DNA of 64,000 nucleotides from positions 1,504,001 to 1,568,000 of the forward strand of contig OY970280.1 in NCBI GenBank assembly GCA_963715865.1, in the 5' to 3' direction. The first letter of the stretch is position 1, and each line of letters opens with the position of its first letter. The notes beneath the pieces are model-generated. The model saw nothing but the letters and a program-made list of their open reading frames with translations. It did no database searches and was not told the DNA's origin. The translations under genes were made by a program, and so were the position numbers. This stretch comes from Candidatus Bathyarchaeota archaeon. GTDB taxonomy: Archaea > Thermoproteota > Bathyarchaeia > Bathyarchaeales > Bathycorpusculaceae. Shown piece by piece: positions 31,506 through 39,914 of this stretch.

Positions 31506-33908
31506 TTAGGTTTTCTTGGTTAGCCACAGGTTCTCCTTGTCGAAGGCGAATTCGCTGAACCTTTGAATATAGTAGAGTCTTAGGTATTCGCCTGCAAACT
31601 TTGCTTGGAATGGAAGGTCTTGCGGTGAAAGACGCTTCTTCCTTCTAAGTTGTTCTTTGATGGCGGCTTCCGCAGTTGGATAGTTGAGTAGAAACTCTTT
31701 TCGCTCATTATAAACCGCCAACGTCTGCATTGTCTCATCCACGTAAGACAGGTACTTGGGCAAGTTTTCCATTATTTGGTTAATCGTGCAGTTCGATGGG
31801 TTTGCGAGAGTTTCAGTTGCTTTCTTTAGGCGTTCCCGCAAGGTGGAGTTTTTCTCCCACAAATAATCCTTTGTCGGCAATAAACGCTCAATTGCCTCTT
31901 CCTCGCTAATCAGTTCAGCATACAGCATTGAGAGCACGTCTTTGGAAATCCCGAGGAAAGATTGAATGTCATCTTTCAACGCAATAACATCTACAATGTT
32001 TAGCTGGTCTTTCTCAGCTTTCTTCTCCGTTGCCACTTTCATTGCCTCAGCTTTCTTGGCATGCTCCAGCACTTTGGGCAGGTTTTCACCAAAAATCGGC
32101 GGCAAAACTTCGCTTTCACCACTCAAATTGGCTATTGGCGCCAAGGAGCTTTTAAGATACTTCATCGACGCCAGGATTTCAGCGCCATACTGCTTCTTCC
32201 AATTATTCAATGAACTGTACAATGCTTCTATAGCAATCCATGGTGCCTCTTTTTCCCCTAGCTTTTGCATCGTGAACTCTATCGCTCGGCTTTTCTCTGG
32301 AAGAGTCGGATCATACAAAGGCCTAATAATCCCGTAAATTGGCTCAGCAACAGTAACAACATCCTTGGCAAGAACCCTTCCTCCGTCTAAGACTTGTTTG
32401 ATAGCTTCTATTCTTGCTTCAAGAGGCATTTCTTTTTGGAAACCAGCGTTCACTGTGGATTTGATGTCTAAGCCGCTGTCTTTGAGTTTTCCTACCCAGT
32501 TAGAAAATTCGCAATTAGCAAAAATCTGGTACTCTGACAGTATAATGTTGAGTTCTGATTCTAAACCGTCGATGTCTTTGCTTAACTTTTCTAACTCCTC
32601 AAATTTCTGGTTCAATTCTGACAGTTCATAAAGCCGCATCTCAAACTTTCTCAGCAGGTCTTCAAGCGAGTCTTTGATAACTAACATTTTACCTTCAGGA
32701 GAACTCACAACCACAGGAATATTCTCCTTAACATTATTCAGTTGGCCCTCAAAAACCTGCAACCGACCCATAAGCGCTTGAGCTTTCTCAGTAATCTCTG
32801 AAGTTGTCGCCGTTTGTTTAGGAGTATAATCAATGAAGGCTGCAGGAAGCGTAAATAAAAGCGTAGCCAAAGTACCAAACACCATCGTTGCTGGGCTAAC
32901 ATTTGCGGTAAAAGCTAATCCATATTGAAGAGCCCCAAGCATGATAAAGAAGAACGCTGCGGCACAAGTAGCCATGAAAGATGGAATAATCCTATCGGCA
33001 AACGACTTGCTACCTTCTGGCACCAACAGCCTTGCTAGGAAAACAAGCGCCAGAGAAAGCCCTGCCACAATGACGATAAACATCAGCATGCCAGGAACAG
33101 AATCACGATACTGTGTTAACGCATCCGAAAGGGTGCGCCCAGCGAAATTAGGTTGCCATGTAAGCTGGCCAGTAATTGCATAAACAGCTTGGGACGCGTC
33201 ATACAATCGAAACTGACTCATAGAAGAACCAAGGTCTGCCAAAATCTGGTTCAAAGGCACAAAAACAGGCGGACTTGAACCAGGTGCAAGCCACCAGTCA
33301 GGCCTAGCAATTTTTGCAACTGTATAATTGAAGTACTGAACGATCTGAAGGGGGACCGTAATTAAAACGTAATACACGATGGTTAAGGCAACTTGTTTTT
33401 TAAAGAATACCGCTGAAGCCAAAATCAATGGAATAGCCAAGAAATAGGTTGAAGTAGAGAAGAGACTTGTGACGGCTAACAGGCCTAAATCAATGGCAAG
33501 AGCGCTCTTGTAGCGGTGAAAAACTATGGGTAAAACGATAAACAAAGTCATCCAGACAACAAGTATTGCTATGCGAACCTGTATTTCCCCGAGGAAGGAA
33601 ATAAAGTACAATTCGGCCAAATGATACATCAAGCCTAACCCAATAACAGCGCCACCAATAGGCATCCCAAACCTCGGATCCTTAAAAGTTACAAACGCCA
33701 CTAGAACCGCAAGTAAAATTGGCACGGGTTGAGGAAATAGCGGCAAAAAAGACATCCCTAATGCCATAGCGGCAAGCGTTACAAAAAAAGTGATGATCTT
33801 AAGCGGCGCTGGCTCAGAAATACGCTGTTGCTCTTGTTTTTCCTTGCTTTTCTGCTTCCTTTCCTTATACCATGAGCGTACACCAGAAAAATTAATTGCC
33901 TTCTTCAA
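31506..33908 (-). CDS. Polytopic membrane protein (~9 TM) with ~440-aa C-terminal coiled-coil region
   Basis: 800-aa ORF; hydrophobic N-terminal ~360 aa, then a heptad-rich charged helical region. Confidence 0.8.
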   Translation of the reverse strand: MKKAINFSGVRSWYKERKQKSKEKQEQQRISEPAPLKIITFFVTLAAMALGMSFLPLFPQPVPILLAVLVAFVTFKDPRFGMPIGGAVIGLGLMYHLAELYFISFLGEIQVRIAILVVWMTLFIVLPIVFHRYKSALAIDLGLLAVTSLFSTSTYFLAIPLILASAVFFKKQVALTIVYYVLITVPLQIVQYFNYTVAKIARPDWWLAPGSSPPVFVPLNQILADLGSSMSQFRLYDASQAVYAITGQLTWQPNFAGRTLSDALTQYRDSVPGMLMFIVIVAGLSLALVFLARLLVPEGSKSFADRIIPSFMATCAAAFFFIMLGALQYGLAFTANVSPATMVFGTLATLLFTLPAAFIDYTPKQTATTSEITEKAQALMGRLQVFEGQLNNVKENIPVVVSSPEGKMLVIKDSLEDLLRKFEMRLYELSELNQKFEELEKLSKDIDGLESELNIILSEYQIFANCEFSNWVGKLKDSGLDIKSTVNAGFQKEMPLEARIEAIKQVLDGGRVLAKDVVTVAEPIYGIIRPLYDPTLPEKSRAIEFTMQKLGEKEAPWIAIEALYSSLNNWKKQYGAEILASMKYLKSSLAPIANLSGESEVLPPIFGENLPKVLEHAKKAEAMKVATEKKAEKDQLNIVDVIALKDDIQSFLGISKDVLSMLYAELISEEEAIERLLPTKDYLWEKNSTLRERLKKATETLANPSNCTINQIMENLPKYLSYVDETMQTLAVYNERKEFLLNYPTAEAAIKEQLRRKKRLSPQDLPFQAKFAGEYLRLYYIQRFSEFAFDKENLWLTKKT

Positions 33909-33969
33909 ACGACTTACCTAAAACCTTATTTTGGGTAGAGTCTTCTTAAATGTTACGTAGGTACCTCGG

Positions 33970-35127
33970 ATGAAAGATGGCAAAAGCTCTTTTAACATTC
34001 TGGAAAGCATTAAGAATCACATAGAAACGTTAAAACCATTACTGCCAAAGCAAGCCATAGTTTGCATTGGCGAATACCCCATCAAGATATTTTTAAAAGA
34101 ACCATACGTTAACAAAGTAAACGAAACGTTGCCGATTCTCATTGGAAAATCAAGCGATGATATTTTTAAATGGATACCAAAAGGTTATGACCCATACTTT
34201 ATTTTAGGTTTTGAAGACGCAGACATTGACACTCATTTCTGGTATAACGTGTTACCATTTATTTCAAAGGATGAAACTTTAATCGGAGGCTTAAAGAAAA
34301 AACCCATCGAAAAACTGCACAGCGCCATAATAGTCGCATCAATATGGGATGGAATTGGCAGCGCTTCATTACCAACCTTAATATCGAAATTCAAAGCCTC
34401 AAACATACATTCACTATCCATAGCCATATTGCCCTCAAAAATACAGCCCACAGATGCATACTTCAACACGATTGCATCATTAGGAATGTGTGCGTCCACC
34501 GATGCTACAACAGTTCTGCTCATAGACAGAGACCACCTTGAAAACTATGAAGGCGTCGATAGAAATGGCTCCCTAATAAAAGGCAACATAATCGCAAATT
34601 ACTTAGTGAACCTATTGTTAGCTAAAGAAACGCTTGTTCAAGAAATCTCCGAGCTATCCAGAACATTCAACGTCAAAATGTACACTGTTCTATTAGCCAC
34701 AGGAGCAAGCATCAAAATTTACGGTTCCCTAGAAAACATGCTAAACGCAACATTGCTCAAGCCCCTTTTAGATTTTGATTTATCAAGCGCTTCATTACTC
34801 TATGTTCTTCTACGCATGCCCATAAGCCTAAAGGATAAGCTTCCAAGAGGAAAAATCGAGTTAGCCATAGCAGGCTGGTTTAAGGAAAAAGCTAACCTTA
34901 AATCCATCTACATAACCGAACCCAGCTACGTCGAAGACACAAGTGACCGAATAGACCTAGCCTTATTTGTTGGCGGCTTTGACACTACCAAAATGTTCAA
35001 TGACTTCGATAAGAAAGTTAAAAGTTTGAAAAGTCGCGCAGTTGAAAAAGGTTTCATAAAAGAGGAAGATTGGCAAATCATTATGAAAAATTTGGAAGGA
35101 CAGAAGGAGCAGCAAACTCCTTCCTAA
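33970..35127 (+). CDS. Degenerate FtsZ/tubulin-fold protein (predicted pseudo-GTPase)
   Basis: By-eye match to FtsZ: AIIVASIWDGIGSASLP (T4 region), SIAILPS (T5), LLIDRDHL (T6), DFDLSSASLLYVLL, DRIDLALFVGG (C-terminal domain). Gly-rich loops are eroded. Confidence 0.7.
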   Translation: MKDGKSSFNILESIKNHIETLKPLLPKQAIVCIGEYPIKIFLKEPYVNKVNETLPILIGKSSDDIFKWIPKGYDPYFILGFEDADIDTHFWYNVLPFISKDETLIGGLKKKPIEKLHSAIIVASIWDGIGSASLPTLISKFKASNIHSLSIAILPSKIQPTDAYFNTIASLGMCASTDATTVLLIDRDHLENYEGVDRNGSLIKGNIIANYLVNLLLAKETLVQEISELSRTFNVKMYTVLLATGASIKIYGSLENMLNATLLKPLLDFDLSSASLLYVLLRMPISLKDKLPRGKIELAIAGWFKEKANLKSIYITEPSYVEDTSDRIDLALFVGGFDTTKMFNDFDKKVKSLKSRAVEKGFIKEEDWQIIMKNLEGQKEQQTPS

Positions 35128-35129
35128 GT

Positions 35130-37790
35130 TTACTTTTTGTTTTGATTGCTGTTGCTGTTGTTGTGATTGCTGTTGTGATTTATCTCTTTAATGATTTGTA
35201 CAGCGGACACTCCGTGCTCAATTAGGTAAGATCTGGATAGGTGTCTTTCGAAATCACTAGATTTGCTGTAAAGTAGTTGCATTTCGTCGTAGGCTTCCAT
35301 GTCTTCAGGTCTTCCTCTACCGCCTACAACCAGTAATCTTGTTGTCCATGGGTCACGAGAGTCAATTACACGAACGGTAATTGTTCTTGACACTTCGCTG
35401 GTAACGTAGCCTGCTAATGCAGTGTAGACTTCTTGAGACAATTCTTCTGTCCACAGGTTTGGAGGTGCTTGCACAGTAACCCAAAGGTAATCTGTCCTGT
35501 AAACTGGTTTATAGCCCATAATGCTTGGCGTTTTGAAAATCCTAATTACACTTTTCATGTAATCCTTAAAGTGGTCCATGTCAAGTATATCTTTGAATAT
35601 TACGTCTCTTGTAAGACTCTCTTCCTGTTCAGTGAGTATCTTGAAGATTATCTTAAGTTGTTCGCTTTCAGTGAGGTCAGCTGACTTCACAAAGTATTTC
35701 TTAGGCGCGACAATGTCAGCAATCTTTTCTCTATATTCCCTGTGTAAATCTACGATCTTATTCAGTCTCTTCCGGTAATCAGACGTAAGTTCAAGTCTCT
35801 TTGTTAATTTTTCGTAAAGTTTAATTGCACTGTCAACTTTGCCCAGGTTCTCAAGCGCATAAGATTCTTCTTCCCCTATCCTCCTCAGGTCACGCTCAAG
35901 ATTCAAAAGCTGTTCTCTAGCATACCGTTTTGTGCTGAAAACTTTTCTTAGCTGCATTTCCATTTTTGACTTATCAAATTCTTTTCGTTTCTTTGTCTCT
36001 TGCACTCTCATGACTTCGTTGTCGAAATTGCCCCTTTTCTGCATTCGTTTTGCCAAGATTTCGTTAATGTAGGTTAAATGTTCATCAATCATTCTTGCCT
36101 CGTCGAATGGCGTTCTAAGTATCATCTGAACTACAAGGTAGATTGTTGCCAGTTCTGATTGAATGTCTTTTAAGTCTTCTAGTTCGCGTATGGATTCTGG
36201 AAGCACTTCATAGTACCTTATTAAAGCGTCAGTTAGGTATCTGGTTTCGTCATAGAATTTCAGGATGTTGAGGGATTTTTCAGCGAGCTCTGAAAGATTT
36301 ACTAAATCCTCCAAAATCTTCTTTTGCCTTAAGGTAAAGGCTTGTGAGCTAGGAATCAATTGCTTGAGCCGATCTAAGATAACTGCCTTTCTCTCAGAGA
36401 ATTCTAAATGTGTTTTTGTTAGGTTGGTAAGTAAGGCTTCTATATTATCTACTTTCCTTGAGCCATCTTTGCGCAATGTTAGGTTTATTATGGCGTCTTC
36501 GATTGGCCCTGTTTTTCCCATTAACTTTATGGTTGACAGGAACTTCATGATTTCGCTTAACCAGTTTTTAACCTGTATTTCGATGCCTTTAACATGTAAT
36601 TCTAAGTCATCTTCAAGTCGTGGATTGCTGTTAATGGTTGTCTTAAGTTTTTCCTCGAACTGTTCTTCGTTGAAAGTACCTGTTTTTATAAGGTAATTCT
36701 TGAAAAGGTCCCTTGTTATTTCATAATCCACTTTTATGATGTTGTTGATTTCATCGAGGATGTCTAGTTTTTCTTTTCTCAGTTCCTGTAGAAGTTGAAT
36801 TCCTTCAAAATTCAACTTATAAGCTGAGATGTATTCTTCAACAGGATAGACTACCTTGACCATACCCAATGTGTGCGATGAATTGTTGGTGAGTCCGACT
36901 TCTGTGCCGATTCCTCCTAGAAGGTCTGCCAAGTCAAAGTCCATTAAGGTGTAAAGCATGTCCACAACCATGTCGTCCATTTCTTTTCGGGCATTAACAA
37001 TGTTGCCTACTTTTGAGAAAGCAGGTAATAGCGGCAAGTAGATTAGAGCATTCAAAGGATTTCTATAGTAGTCACCGTAGGATTTTATGACAAATTCATT
37101 GTAATCCTTATTCAACAACAGCGAAAGTTCATTCATCGACACAAATGCGGAGCATCCTTTTGCTGGAGGGTCATCTCCGCCACAAGGAGTTATTACGAAA
37201 GCTATTATTGGTACGCCAGAACCTAACACTTTTCGTAAATGTCTAGCGAAATCAAAGAATATACCGCTTCCAGTGCCACCGCCTAATCCATAAACCAAAA
37301 CCACTGTCGGCGTAATTATTGATGAAAGGGCTTGCTCTTTGAATGAGTTTATGCAGTTTTTGATTATTCCAAGTTGGTAATAGTTTAAGGCGTAGATTGC
37401 TTTTGCTAAGGCTCTTCTTCTGCCTGCGCCGCCAGCCATCGGCGGAATAGCCATTGTCGATTGTAGCCAAGGAATAAAGTTTTCAAGTTTTGCCCCTTCG
37501 CCTACGAGGTATTCGTTGTATTTTTGGTTGATGAAGTCGAACATTGCCTCGGCAGTTGGGAATTTTACTGATTGGGCGATTAGGCGCATTCTTTCGCTTG
37601 GGATACCTGCTTTTATCATCGATTTCTGTATTTGTTCATGGGTTTCCTGTAAACTTCTGATTTCAGGGTCAGCGATATCGATAGCTAAAAGAGAAAGCCT
37701 TGTAAGGTCATTCTGCATCAGCTCCTTAGTTTTTTTGTTTGATAAAAAAGCTTCTACAATGTTAGTTCCAGCTGAACCCAGCCCTATCAC
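35130..37790 (-). CDS. FtsZ/tubulin-superfamily GTPase with large coiled-coil insertion; true start probably 9-11 codons upstream
   Basis: VIGLGSAGTN (T1), GGAGRRR (T3), LGGGTGSG (T4 signature), ITP (T5), MDFDLADL (T7-like), long helical insert, then an FtsZ-like C-terminal domain. Confidence 0.88.
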   Translation of the reverse strand: MIGLGSAGTNIVEAFLSNKKTKELMQNDLTRLSLLAIDIADPEIRSLQETHEQIQKSMIKAGIPSERMRLIAQSVKFPTAEAMFDFINQKYNEYLVGEGAKLENFIPWLQSTMAIPPMAGGAGRRRALAKAIYALNYYQLGIIKNCINSFKEQALSSIITPTVVLVYGLGGGTGSGIFFDFARHLRKVLGSGVPIIAFVITPCGGDDPPAKGCSAFVSMNELSLLLNKDYNEFVIKSYGDYYRNPLNALIYLPLLPAFSKVGNIVNARKEMDDMVVDMLYTLMDFDLADLLGGIGTEVGLTNNSSHTLGMVKVVYPVEEYISAYKLNFEGIQLLQELRKEKLDILDEINNIIKVDYEITRDLFKNYLIKTGTFNEEQFEEKLKTTINSNPRLEDDLELHVKGIEIQVKNWLSEIMKFLSTIKLMGKTGPIEDAIINLTLRKDGSRKVDNIEALLTNLTKTHLEFSERKAVILDRLKQLIPSSQAFTLRQKKILEDLVNLSELAEKSLNILKFYDETRYLTDALIRYYEVLPESIRELEDLKDIQSELATIYLVVQMILRTPFDEARMIDEHLTYINEILAKRMQKRGNFDNEVMRVQETKKRKEFDKSKMEMQLRKVFSTKRYAREQLLNLERDLRRIGEEESYALENLGKVDSAIKLYEKLTKRLELTSDYRKRLNKIVDLHREYREKIADIVAPKKYFVKSADLTESEQLKIIFKILTEQEESLTRDVIFKDILDMDHFKDYMKSVIRIFKTPSIMGYKPVYRTDYLWVTVQAPPNLWTEELSQEVYTALAGYVTSEVSRTITVRVIDSRDPWTTRLLVVGGRGRPEDMEAYDEMQLLYSKSSDFERHLSRSYLIEHGVSAVQIIKEINHNSNHNNSNSNQNKK

Positions 37791-37823
37791 TTGTACACTG
37801 TTTTGATAGAATCTCGTAGGTTG

Positions 37824-38822
37824 TCACATCCCAACTAGTCTTTTCAATCTGTCCTTAACTGACTCCAAACTTGACGACATTGTTCTGTCGATTTTTGAAG
37901 CTCGCAACGTTAAGCCTTCCAAGTCCTTGATTTGGTCTTCAACGACAAGTTGGAAGTAGCTTACTTTCCCTCTCACCCTCAGGAACATGACTACGAATAC
38001 AACTGCTACAACGGCTAAGACACCGATTATCGGGATGAAGAGCGATTGCATTGTTGAAGACGCAGGCTCGTTGGAAACGTTGAGACCATTAAGCATAGCT
38101 ATAGCATCGGTGACATCCCCAGCGTTAGCTACAACCTTTGATTGGTTGAGAACATTAGTGTAGATGTCAATGTATCCTTGGACAACTCCCGATGACTCAA
38201 GGGATTTCAGGTGGGTCTCCTTCTGGCTATAAAGTGTCAGGAACTGACTCATCGCCGCAGTGGTTGATGACACGGTAATTTGGTCAAGAGGCACCCCGCC
38301 CGATGGACCATACAAGGTCACGACATTAACTGGCGCCTGTGCTTCTGTAGCAGAGGGAGTTGGAACTACGCCAATGACAGTCATAGTAAAGGTTCCTTGA
38401 ACCCAATTGAAGGATGCTGTTTTTGCGCCTGCTGAGAAATCTGAGCCTAGCGTATAATTGCTTGAAGTGTCTAGTGACCAGTATTGACCTTGAAGCAGTT
38501 GTCCCAAGCTGGTTGAAAGCTTAAGGTCGCCAGAGCCAGCAGCGATAACGTTGACTGTGAATGTCACCTTAATGTCTGCTCCAGGCAGTATCGTCGCTAA
38601 TGTTTGATTCACGCCTGTGGCTGAATTGTATTCAGCATAATGCTGGTTGGAATTATAATCGTAAATATCGTAGCTTGTAATCCATTGGCCTTCGCCAACG
38701 GCTTTAACAGATGATGTTAAAACGGAAGTTACACAGACAATTGTTAACATTAGAAGGAGACTTAAAGCTAGAATTTTCTTGTTCAATTTTGTTCCCTCAT
38801 AATTTTTTATTGCATGATACAT
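37824..38822 (-). CDS. Secreted, single-pass membrane-anchored protein with short cytoplasmic helical tail
   Basis: N-terminal signal peptide, beta-rich S/T extracellular domain, TM helix LFIPIIGVLAVVAVVFVVMFL, ~50-aa charged tail. Confidence 0.8.
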   Translation of the reverse strand: MYHAIKNYEGTKLNKKILALSLLLMLTIVCVTSVLTSSVKAVGEGQWITSYDIYDYNSNQHYAEYNSATGVNQTLATILPGADIKVTFTVNVIAAGSGDLKLSTSLGQLLQGQYWSLDTSSNYTLGSDFSAGAKTASFNWVQGTFTMTVIGVVPTPSATEAQAPVNVVTLYGPSGGVPLDQITVSSTTAAMSQFLTLYSQKETHLKSLESSGVVQGYIDIYTNVLNQSKVVANAGDVTDAIAMLNGLNVSNEPASSTMQSLFIPIIGVLAVVAVVFVVMFLRVRGKVSYFQLVVEDQIKDLEGLTLRASKIDRTMSSSLESVKDRLKRLVGM

Positions 38823-38984
38823 ATAACTCTTGCGCTAAACCGCTCGAAAAAAAATTTCTCTGAATTTTAGCCCTTACTTAGCTAAATTAATCATGCGCTA
38901 AGCCCACGAAGCCTAAAATTAGTCACTTCTATGACAAAGAATAAGAGATTTCACGTATAACACTTGCAACACGAGTGGTTAAAG

Positions 38985-39914
38985 ATGGAGATCATAAACG
39001 TTCGCTTACCCGACAAAATTCTCTCAGACATAGACAAACTAGCCCAAAAACACAGTCTCAGCCGATCAGAGGTTATGCGTCAAGCGTTAACAGTCTATTT
39101 GCACCTTGTAGAGAACGTTGGCACAATGCTGCGTCCTATAGTTTTCCAAGTGAAGCCTGCCCAAATAACTTACACGCGAAGAGGCGATGTTTCAATCCTG
39201 AAAGTTCCCACAGGACACGCTATCGTGGTAGGGTCAACCTCGTCAGGAGCGGTTGGTCCAAAAATAATGGATAAAGTCAAAGTTGAGGGGCGAGTGCTGG
39301 GAAAGTTTCTGGCAAGGGTTGCCTTAATGGACGTGATAGCGACAGGCGCGTTTCCTCTTCTTTTATCCGTTACGTTAGGCGTGGAGAAGGAGCCTACAGG
39401 CAACGAGATACTAGAGGGCATTCGACGTGAAACCAGAAGCCTCGGTCTTGACCCAAACCAAGTGCTGATGGAAAATACGGAGGATAATTTTGAAACCGTG
39501 CAAACTGGCGCTGGGTTAACTGTAGTTGGTTTTGCAAACGAGGACGAGCTGAGACTTGGAAAAACAAGCCCTGGCGACTTAATAGTTGCCGTTGGCAAGC
39601 CTAAGGTTGGTGATGAAGTGATTTTGGCTGAAGCGAAGGGTGAAATTGCTGATCTCAAAAATGTAACTCAACTTTCCCAGAAAAAATATGTTCATGACAT
39701 TGCGCCTGTCGGCACGTTTGGCATTGCGGATGAGGCTAGAATGATGGCGTTTGGCGTTGGTAGGCAATTGAAACTTGTCGAGGTGCAGGGATTGGATTTG
39801 AACAAGTCTGCTGGTCCAGCCACGGTTGTTCTTGCCACTGTGGATAGAGAGAGACTTGAAGATTTAATGTCGTTAATTAGTAAACCTATCAATGTGGTAG
39901 GAGAAATATTATAG
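38985..39914 (+). CDS. RHH DNA-binding domain fused to an alpha-ribazole kinase (CblS)-like / AIR-synthase-fold domain
   Basis: INVRLPDKILSDIDKLAQKHSLSRSEVMRQAL (RHH), then SSGAVGPK..D, ARVALMDV.ATGA.P, VEKEPTG, TEDNFETVQTG.GLTVVG. Confidence 0.72.
   Translation: MEIINVRLPDKILSDIDKLAQKHSLSRSEVMRQALTVYLHLVENVGTMLRPIVFQVKPAQITYTRRGDVSILKVPTGHAIVVGSTSSGAVGPKIMDKVKVEGRVLGKFLARVALMDVIATGAFPLLLSVTLGVEKEPTGNEILEGIRRETRSLGLDPNQVLMENTEDNFETVQTGAGLTVVGFANEDELRLGKTSPGDLIVAVGKPKVGDEVILAEAKGEIADLKNVTQLSQKKYVHDIAPVGTFGIADEARMMAFGVGRQLKLVEVQGLDLNKSAGPATVVLATVDRERLEDLMSLISKPINVVGEIL

Follow-up and report, generated by a model that had tools for sequence, protein, structure and literature searches.

The locus described here lies within a stretch of 64,000 nucleotides (hereafter the window; positions are counted from its first letter) of Candidatus Bathyarchaeota archaeon, corresponding to positions 1,504,001 to 1,568,000 of contig OY970280.1 in assembly GCA_963715865.1. 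The window is part of a complete 2.35-Mb genome assembled as a single contig, and it carries a module of four adjacent genes centered on an FtsZ-like GTPase of the FtsZl1 family. The anchor gene (37824..38822, minus strand) encodes a bitopic, type I-like membrane protein of 332 amino acids. It is followed on the same strand by the FtsZl1 gene, which the open reading frame (ORF) finder has called at 35130..37790 as an 886-residue protein starting from GTG. A second tubulin-fold protein of 385 residues is encoded on the plus strand at 33970..35127, and a polytopic membrane protein of 800 residues on the minus strand at 31506..33908. The stops of the convergent 385- and 886-residue genes are separated by only 2 nucleotides (35128-35129), while the 385- and 800-residue genes diverge from an intergenic region of 61 nucleotides (33909..33969) that presumably holds the promoters of both. 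A preliminary description of the locus had reported the same four adjacent ORFs with the same two gaps, and these coordinates are correct. One canonical FtsZ is encoded elsewhere in the genome.

The family assignment of the 886-residue protein comes from its match to the Pfam model Tubulin_2 (PF13809), with 57.0 bits against a cut-off of 27 over residues 1-202. It also passes the Pfam model Tubulin (PF00091), with 33.7 bits against a cut-off of 33, and its relatives in two other loci (L004 and L095; locus, genome, protein and family labels are our own) are likewise above the PF13809 cut-off. The FtsZ-like sequences described by Makarova and Koonin in 2010 carry the Tubulin_2 model, according to a later paper (PMC9871819). 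The protein, whether counted as 886 residues or as the 895 residues discussed below, is a member of the FtsZl1 family.

The nucleotide-binding motifs of FtsZl1 have been examined in an alignment of 10 homologues with 32-75 % identity. The T1 motif GLGSAGTN (37761-37784, minus strand) is conserved, and in the T4 motif GLGGGTGSG (residues 168-176; 37263-37289, minus strand) four of the six glycines, G168, G170, G171, and G172, are invariant. A T7-like motif, DFDLAD, is found at residues 284-289 (36924-36941, minus strand) with F285, D286, and D289 invariant. Its spacing is that of the FtsZ T7 loop, NxDxxD. In the structural model, DFDLAD sits between a long helix (residues 264-284) and a short helix (residues 287-292), and its position is therefore like that of T7 between H7 and H8.

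The full-length AlphaFold2 (AF2) model of FtsZl1 has a mean predicted local distance difference test score (pLDDT) of 72.9, which is high in the helical part and low in several loops of the GTPase domain. Based on the alignment and on the secondary structure of the model, residues 1-316 (36843..37790, minus strand) are assigned to the nucleotide-binding domain, helix H7, the T7 loop, and strand S7. They are followed by a predicted helical insert of ~440 residues (~317-760; 35511..36842, minus strand) made of long helices of 40-55 residues with a pLDDT of 85-94. Residues ~761-826 (35313..35510, minus strand) are assigned to the remainder of the C-terminal (activation) domain, with strands S8-S10, a helix, and the conserved sequences WVTVQAP and DPW..R..VV.G.

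The best structural match of the FtsZl1 model is CetZ (3zid_B), with Z 19.0 and a root-mean-square deviation (rmsd) of 4.0 over 281 aligned residues, compared with Z 17.3 for TubZ and Z 16.8 for a chain of the Asgard AtubA/B2 heterodimer (9f6v_D). Each of these alignments spans model residues 1 to 825/826. Since the structural match runs across the insert, residues ~761-826 are taken to complete the C-terminal domain, and residues ~317-760 to be an insert between S7 and S8. On this model, FtsZl1 appears to have a complete tubulin/FtsZ fold interrupted by a helical insert within its C-terminal domain, where the insert would form a stalk or arm. The preliminary description had presented FtsZl1 as a tubulin-signature GTPase with a long coiled coil. 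The T1 and T4 motifs and the Pfam matches bear out the first part of this statement, while the coiled coil is better described as an insert within the C-terminal domain than as a tail. The insert itself matches only generic helical hairpins (SMC, F-BAR, and ESCRT-III) with Z of ~10, which is below a meaningful level for long helices and is not diagnostic. Across the loci of close relatives, which are Bathy-6-type metagenome-assembled genomes (MAGs) from peat, wetland, and soil, FtsZl1 has a median identity of 79 % and a ratio of nonsynonymous to synonymous substitution rates (dN/dS) of 0.07.

The start codon called by the ORF finder, GTG at 37790, would truncate the first β-strand (S1) of FtsZl1. 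The peptide R-[IF]-Y-Q-N-S-V-Q, encoded upstream of this GTG, is kept in 79 loci, and every one of its codons varies synonymously. At the proposed start codon, which lies 27 nucleotides upstream of the GTG (37815..37817, minus strand), ACG is found in 71 of these 79 loci, with ACG one codon further upstream in six and ATG in the remaining two. The conserved sequence GGGATGTGA (37824..37832, minus strand), formed by the last codons and the stop of the anchor gene, is Shine-Dalgarno-like and precedes the ACG by 4-7 nucleotides. The fixed ACG amid synonymous change, the ATG in two loci, and GGGATGTGA are together read as initiation at ACG. Judging from these conservation patterns, the FtsZl1 gene most likely starts at this conserved non-canonical codon and would occupy 35130..37817 on the minus strand, encoding 895 residues. 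Readthrough of the stop codon from the anchor gene into FtsZl1 has also been considered, and it has been rejected because the anchor gene ends in all three frames relative to FtsZl1, often with two stops between them.

The FtsZl1 gene is represented, at ~93 % identity (window 34867-37961), in contigs assembled from three peat metatranscriptome runs that are listed under separate studies. One contig spans the junction between the anchor and FtsZl1 genes, and one has a 1-nucleotide deletion at 37819, in the spacer before the ACG. These contigs hint that the FtsZl1 gene is expressed, with carry-over of DNA as another possible source. Coverage of the other three genes is lacking, from which, since these are assembled contigs, nothing follows for the expression of those genes.

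The 385-residue protein is barely recognizable from sequence. It remains below threshold on the Pfam model Tubulin (PF00091; 19.8 bits against a cut-off of 33, E 1e-3), and a PDB sequence search finds CetZ at E 0.2. Its AF2 model, built from a 38-row alignment, has a pLDDT of 87.4 and a predicted template modelling score (pTM) of 0.87. Foldseek matches this model to at least 500 PDB chains of the tubulin superfamily at E <= 0.001, led by CetZ, TubZ, and FtsZ. The E values against CetZ, TubZ, FtsZ, and tubulin are between 2e-14 and 1e-12, with CetZ as the top match (2e-14). A structural comparison with VIA gives Z 32.3 and rmsd 3.1 over 342 aligned residues for Odin tubulin, and Z 30-32 over ~345 of the 385 residues for Odin tubulin, BtubA, and eukaryotic tubulins. 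The VIA matches reach the end of the model and include the C-terminal helices (H11/H12). The protein is thus modelled with a complete two-domain tubulin/FtsZ fold, and its earlier designation as a degenerate FtsZ-fold protein is upheld by the AF2 model, Foldseek, and VIA, together with the loss of its GTP motifs.

This loss is seen in the family alignment, where the place of T1 is taken by CIGEYP (34063-34080, plus strand), without GxGxxG, and that of T4 by SIWDGIGSA (34339-34365, plus strand), without GGGTGSG. Throughout the Bathyarchaeia subfamily, an acidic residue replaces the phosphate-binding glycine in T4. No conserved acidic residues of the T7 type (NxDxxD/E) have been found between H7 and S7 in 38 members of the second-tubulin family. 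By its motifs, the 385-residue protein is probably a pseudo-GTPase. Its gene is nonetheless under purifying selection and is still a working gene, since 78 of 80 loci have an intact ORF, the remaining two ending at a contig edge, and dN/dS against the window gene is 0.10-0.18 (about 0.14).

An exhaustive HMMER search with the 385-residue protein over 1.84 billion representatives shows that its family is small, with only 115 clusters; the few source records that name an organism are labelled Nitrososphaerales. The family falls into a group of Bathyarchaeia-type proteins of 366-399 residues and a group of 420-460 residues. In the latter, the protein begins with a zinc ribbon, GxGxxG is present, and GGGTGSG is often preserved; several members are above the Pfam Tubulin cut-off, with 39.9-49 bits. 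An alignment of the second-tubulin and FtsZl1 profiles with hhalign gives a probability of 95.7 % and E 8e-9 over 109 columns at 12 % identity. This match is distant, and the two tubulin-fold families are therefore not the product of a recent duplication. A phylum-wide search with the second-tubulin profile returns mostly ordinary FtsZ and CetZ (E 1e-6 to 1e-16), which makes it unusable for counting the family and at the same time confirms that the second tubulin belongs to the superfamily.

Two further observations concern tubulin-type genes of this kind. In some close relatives (L008:8057-9799 of genome G038, and proteins P0126-P0131), the pseudo-GTPase is lengthened at its N-terminus by 100-290 residues of low complexity, in which E, Q, T, and P are frequent, to a total of 496-658 residues. 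Another Thermoproteota genome (G253:C37:3155-6574) has three tandem tubulin-family genes for proteins of 331-339 residues, which match the second-tubulin profile at E 1e-10 to 1e-13.

The two membrane proteins have been characterized by hydropathy. The 332-residue anchor has a basic N-terminus, a signal or transmembrane (TM) segment at residues 17-35, an outside domain of ~225 residues, and a TM segment at residues 261-279, in agreement with its first description as a surface protein with a TM anchor. It ends in a basic, helical tail of 53 residues that is conserved in sequence. The anchor has no family match in Pfam or NCBIfam. In 78 of 80 loci, and in distant loci as well, its gene immediately precedes FtsZl1, and from this gene order and from its topology the protein is proposed to be a membrane tether. 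A search for fused forms of the anchor among proteins of 582-2000 residues found none, which is weak evidence. The 800-residue protein has a basic N-terminus and ~10 hydrophobic helices in residues 38-359, consistent with the polytopic membrane protein originally described, followed by 440 soluble residues. It too has no family match in Pfam or NCBIfam. Its homologues adjoin FtsZl1 in all lineages examined, and the counterpart in Thermoproteota family f37 shares its build and not a detectable sequence similarity.

Co-conservation of the four genes has been assessed in a class-level sample of 81 Bathyarchaeia genomes and a phylum-level sample of 251 Thermoproteota genomes. Searches with each of the four proteins lead to one and the same set of eight among the 81 Bathyarchaeia genomes: that of the window, another from its genus, and six of the ten from family f17. 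In all eight, the genes are adjacent, in the same order and orientation. Neither the second tubulin gene nor the polytopic gene is found without the other module genes in the 81 genomes; two further genomes have only a more distant FtsZl1 homologue. FtsZl1 of the window's subfamily is present in 9 of the 251 Thermoproteota genomes. A set of 80 loci has been fetched from genome contigs with the FtsZl1 alignment, which returned only Bathyarchaeia. The order anchor>, FtsZl1>, <pseudo-GTPase, polytopic> is found in 72 of them, and the other eight are cut by contig ends. The preliminary description had named beforehand a lack of co-conservation as the result that would speak against a common system. 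The four genes are strictly co-conserved, as the 72 identical loci and the eight genomes demonstrate.

The genes flanking the module are kept within the genus in 24-34 of the 43 loci with full flanks, which argues for a stable chromosomal gene set and against a mobile island. Of two genomes of the genus that lack the module, one has these flanking genes on separate contigs (G251), and in the other they have not been found (G231).

Beyond this immediate group, all four genes have clustered homologues at the Nitrososphaerales MAG loci L010/L011, and the same is true of L012 and L013. Loci L097-L099 have a like run of gene sizes, with Pfam Tubulin_2 and Tubulin matches on the two tubulin-type genes. 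The order of the genes is not the same in all of these loci. Several operons of the subfamily that bears GTP motifs also contain a fifth gene, for a soluble protein of 325-357 residues without a family match (L010:6930-7907, L012:5881-6924, L097:8950-10011, and L098:8835-9908), which has no counterpart in the window. In Thermoproteota family f37, an anchor homologue (E 1e-33) is found with FtsZl1, a 329-residue degenerate tubulin-like gene product (E 9e-8), and a polytopic protein.

Some additional observations have been made on individual loci. In a Bathycorpusculum MAG (L059, 12610-16567), the FtsZl1 and pseudo-GTPase genes, which otherwise lie 2-70 nucleotides apart, are separated by ~3.9 kb. 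Some module contigs also occur in MAGs with bacterial labels, namely Limnocylindrales, Sulfotelmatobacter, and Chloroflexota/Dehalococcoidia (L037, L061, L097, P0088, P0256, P0258, and P0266). Those labelled Limnocylindrales and Sulfotelmatobacter are probably mis-binned, to judge from their 75-79 % identity to Bathyarchaeia genes. A plasmid search has returned tubulin-like genes of Rhodococcus, Agrobacterium, and Brucella with a different architecture. Among them, Rhodococcus jostii plasmid pRHL2 (L094, 163335-166915) has a gene for a 514-residue 'tubulin-like domain' protein that shares ~30 % identity with the GTPase domain of FtsZl1; the next two genes encode 99 and 568 residues and have no assigned function. 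Next to the module in the window, a gene at 38964-39914 diverges from the anchor gene and encodes a ribbon-helix-helix domain fused to an AIR-synthase-related/kinase-like domain.

FtsZl1 was predicted in 2010 to be the core of membrane-remodelling operons (Makarova and Koonin, PMC2875224). The published FtsZl1 operons encode vWA proteins, Ser/Thr kinases, a diverged P-loop GTPase, OmpA-like proteins, and lineage-specific proteins (PMC2875224). The archaeal operon described by the same authors (MA2710-MA2713, Mbar_A2474-A2477, and PAB1256-1258) has the order A2, FtsZl1, a membrane-associated P-loop GTPase, and A1, in which A2 is a small membrane protein of 164-334 residues and A1 a protein of 408-821 residues with mixed alpha/beta structure (PMC2875224). 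The protein of the window shares with the FtsZl1 family an N-terminal tubulin-like GTPase domain with the GGGTG(S/T)G loop, a long helical region, and a C-terminal globular part. The locus shares with the archaeal operons its membrane-protein partners and the canonical FtsZ elsewhere in the genome. The 332-residue anchor holds the position of A2 upstream of FtsZl1 and is within the size range of A2, a likeness by position and size alone. The 2010 paper could not identify T6-H7 or a tubulin-type C-terminal domain in FtsZl1 (PMC2875224). By comparison, the subfamily of the window has the invariant T7-like DFDLAD, and its C-terminal part, as modelled, completes the tubulin fold.

The locus also differs from the published operons in its partners. 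A vWA protein, a Ser/Thr kinase, an OmpA-like protein, and a P-loop GTPase are all lacking, and the second tubulin-fold protein and the polytopic membrane protein are found instead. Pfam and NCBIfam list no vWA, kinase, or GTPase families for the four proteins, nor is vWA found in the nine flanking ORFs scanned, and none of the four has a Walker A or NKxD motif. In this respect, the preliminary description was right to note that the usual vWA and kinase partners of the FtsZl families are not seen here. Its suggestion of an undescribed system holds for the set of partners, which is unlike that of any of the published FtsZl1 operons examined, and does not hold for the central GTPase, which belongs to the described FtsZl1/Tubulin_2 family. 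The module is a lineage-specific variant of the predicted FtsZl1 membrane-remodelling system and not a new kind of cytoskeleton. Later literature mentions only 'non-canonical FtsZ-like sequences' in Bathyarchaeia and Nitrososphaeria, or sets Tubulin_2 aside, and a literature search has found no experimental work on any FtsZl1.

Two other systems offer partial comparisons. CetZ (3zid, 4b45, and 4b46) gives the highest structural score with FtsZl1 (Z 19) and leads the Foldseek matches of the 385-residue protein; it is archaeal and has a role outside division too. However, CetZ is an active GTPase that lacks the insert and is not accompanied by conserved membrane proteins, and Pfam lists no CetZ C-terminal family for FtsZl1 or the 385-residue protein at E <= 1. 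The combination of FtsZ with FtsA, ZipA, or SepF is similar in concept, as a soluble tubulin-fold polymer is held on the membrane by a separately encoded anchor, but the anchors of the window are unrelated in sequence to FtsA, ZipA, and SepF.

Based on these observations, we favor the view, which we consider moderately probable, that the locus encodes a four-part, membrane-attached assembly around the FtsZl1-type GTPase, with local remodelling of the membrane or envelope, and not division, as its likely output. In this assembly, FtsZl1 would bind and hydrolyze GTP and self-associate through the usual longitudinal tubulin interface. The GTP-dead paralogue may enter this interface as a non-catalytic cap, nucleator, or adaptor, presenting a tubulin surface while neither hydrolyzing GTP nor activating hydrolysis by its neighbour. 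The short tail of the anchor and the soluble domain of the polytopic protein would tether the assembly to the membrane on its cytoplasmic side, and the outside domain of the bitopic protein would reach the cell envelope. The helical insert of FtsZl1 could work as an arm or spacer, and the output may be a change of shape, a protrusion, or the formation of vesicles. A role in cell division is unlikely because a canonical FtsZ is present in the genome and the distribution of the module is patchy.

Several points weigh against this view. The polymerization, GTPase activity, and membrane binding of FtsZl1 are all inferred, and the contacts among the four proteins are proposed. In the FtsZl1 model, made from a 10-row alignment, the loops at residues 97-140, 203-227, and 287-306 have a pLDDT of 30-60. 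The 440-residue part of the polytopic protein is presumed, from hydropathy only, to be helical and cytoplasmic, and its earlier description as a coiled coil is likewise putative. In the genome G011, a more distant FtsZl1 homologue of 960 residues (L004:8408-11290) has none of the three partner genes with it, and not every FtsZl1 therefore depends on them; this homologue has a cysteine-rich C-terminal extension and adjoins a Cdc6/Orc1 gene and an ABC-2 transporter. Finally, bacterial FtsZl1 operons have been reinterpreted as biological-conflict systems (PMC7159879).

The most probable of the alternatives, although we consider it unlikely, is an obligate heterodimer in the manner of alpha/beta-tubulin, in which the two tubulin-fold proteins would alternate strictly, with FtsZl1 in the alpha role (catalytic T7) and the second protein in the beta role. 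As in alpha/beta-tubulin, BtubA/B, and the Asgard AtubA/B (9f6v and 9hxc), paralogous tubulin-fold genes are adjacent and one of them has the catalytic T7. DFDLAD is present in FtsZl1 and T7 is lacking in the partner family, the two genes always co-occur, and the 385-residue model can be superposed on tubulins for ~345 residues, its C-terminal helices among them, with Z 30-32. Moreover, the T7-less partners of Nitrososphaerales type keep GxGxxG and GGGTGSG, which makes a hydrolyzable site facing the T7 of FtsZl1 formally possible. In Bathyarchaeia, however, the partner lacks the GTP-binding loops. An alternating polymer would leave the T7 of FtsZl1 without a substrate, yet this T7 is invariant, and strict alternation is therefore doubted. 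The kinship between the two proteins is also distant (12 % identity over 109 columns), and their identity to the heterodimeric tubulins is ~10-15 %. Unlike in those tubulins, one partner has no GTP-binding loops, the other has a 440-residue insert, and there are dedicated membrane partners. A complex prediction of the 385-residue protein with FtsZl1 residues 1-330/755-830 gave a score of 0.00 against a mark of 0.32; run without controls, it is no evidence either way.

A broader and equally doubtful scheme would have a subset of TACK archaea evolving a division of labour like that of alpha- and beta-tubulin independently of eukaryotes and Asgard archaea. FtsZl1 would provide T7 and a lever arm, and the T7-less partner would bind GTP in Nitrososphaerales-type operons and be nucleotide-dead in Bathyarchaeia. 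Both might co-assemble on the two membrane proteins as a GTP-driven, membrane-shaping machine, the tubulin-fold counterpart of dynamin-like proteins.

Less probable still is a biological-conflict (anti-virus or anti-plasmid) system of the kind proposed for bacterial neighbourhoods of GTPase, vWA, and tubulin genes. Kaur, Burroughs, Iyer, and Aravind 2020 placed tubulin-coiled-coil proteins in GAP1-N2 GTPase-centric conflict systems, which in Firmicutes have two tubulin-coiled-coil genes per neighbourhood (PMC7159879). The locus resembles these Firmicute systems in its two tubulin-domain genes and membrane-bound partners, and the patchy distribution of the whole module (8 of 81 Bathyarchaeia genomes) and of the FtsZl1 subfamily (9 of 251 Thermoproteota genomes) would also suit a conflict system. 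On the other hand, GAP1-N2 systems are bacterial, and their defining components, a GAP1-type GTPase, vWA, and FNIII repeats, are all absent from the locus; both of their tubulins carry coiled coils, while here only one does. The four proteins have no vWA, no P-loop GTPase motif, and no FNIII, effector, or peptidase domain. No PADLOC defence family passes either: three of the proteins have no match to the PADLOC models, and the fourth has a single match at chance level (E 0.009). The stable chromosomal context (24-34 of 43 loci) and the slow, purifying evolution of FtsZl1 (dN/dS 0.07), without the diversification typical of conflict genes, also argue against this explanation.

An alternative cell-division or DNA-segregation apparatus of FtsZ-like or TubZ-like type is the least probable of the alternatives. 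Tubulin-superfamily proteins do both elsewhere, and TubZ and PhuZ are among the closest structural and language-model neighbours. Yet the genome has a canonical FtsZ, and searches failed to find the module in the majority of complete genomes from its class and family. Neither a DNA-binding adaptor nor centromere-like repeats have been seen beside it, two dedicated membrane proteins poorly suit plasmid partition, and the context is chromosomal and not that of an element.

With a four-part membrane-attached assembly as the preferred reading, the module can be regarded as a compact and conserved archaeal version of the system whose core, FtsZl1, was predicted in 2010 to remodel membranes, and having only four parts, it makes that prediction testable. 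In its model, FtsZl1 has the complete tubulin fold, with the helical insert inside the C-terminal domain, and it keeps the T7-like motif. The partner appears from its motifs to have lost catalysis and, in one lineage, nucleotide binding too, which would provide a natural series from an active pair to a pair of one active and one dead protein. The conserved ACG start, if true, would give archaea a rare example of regulated initiation at a non-canonical codon. The organisms that carry the module are Bathyarchaeia widespread in peat and wetland soils.

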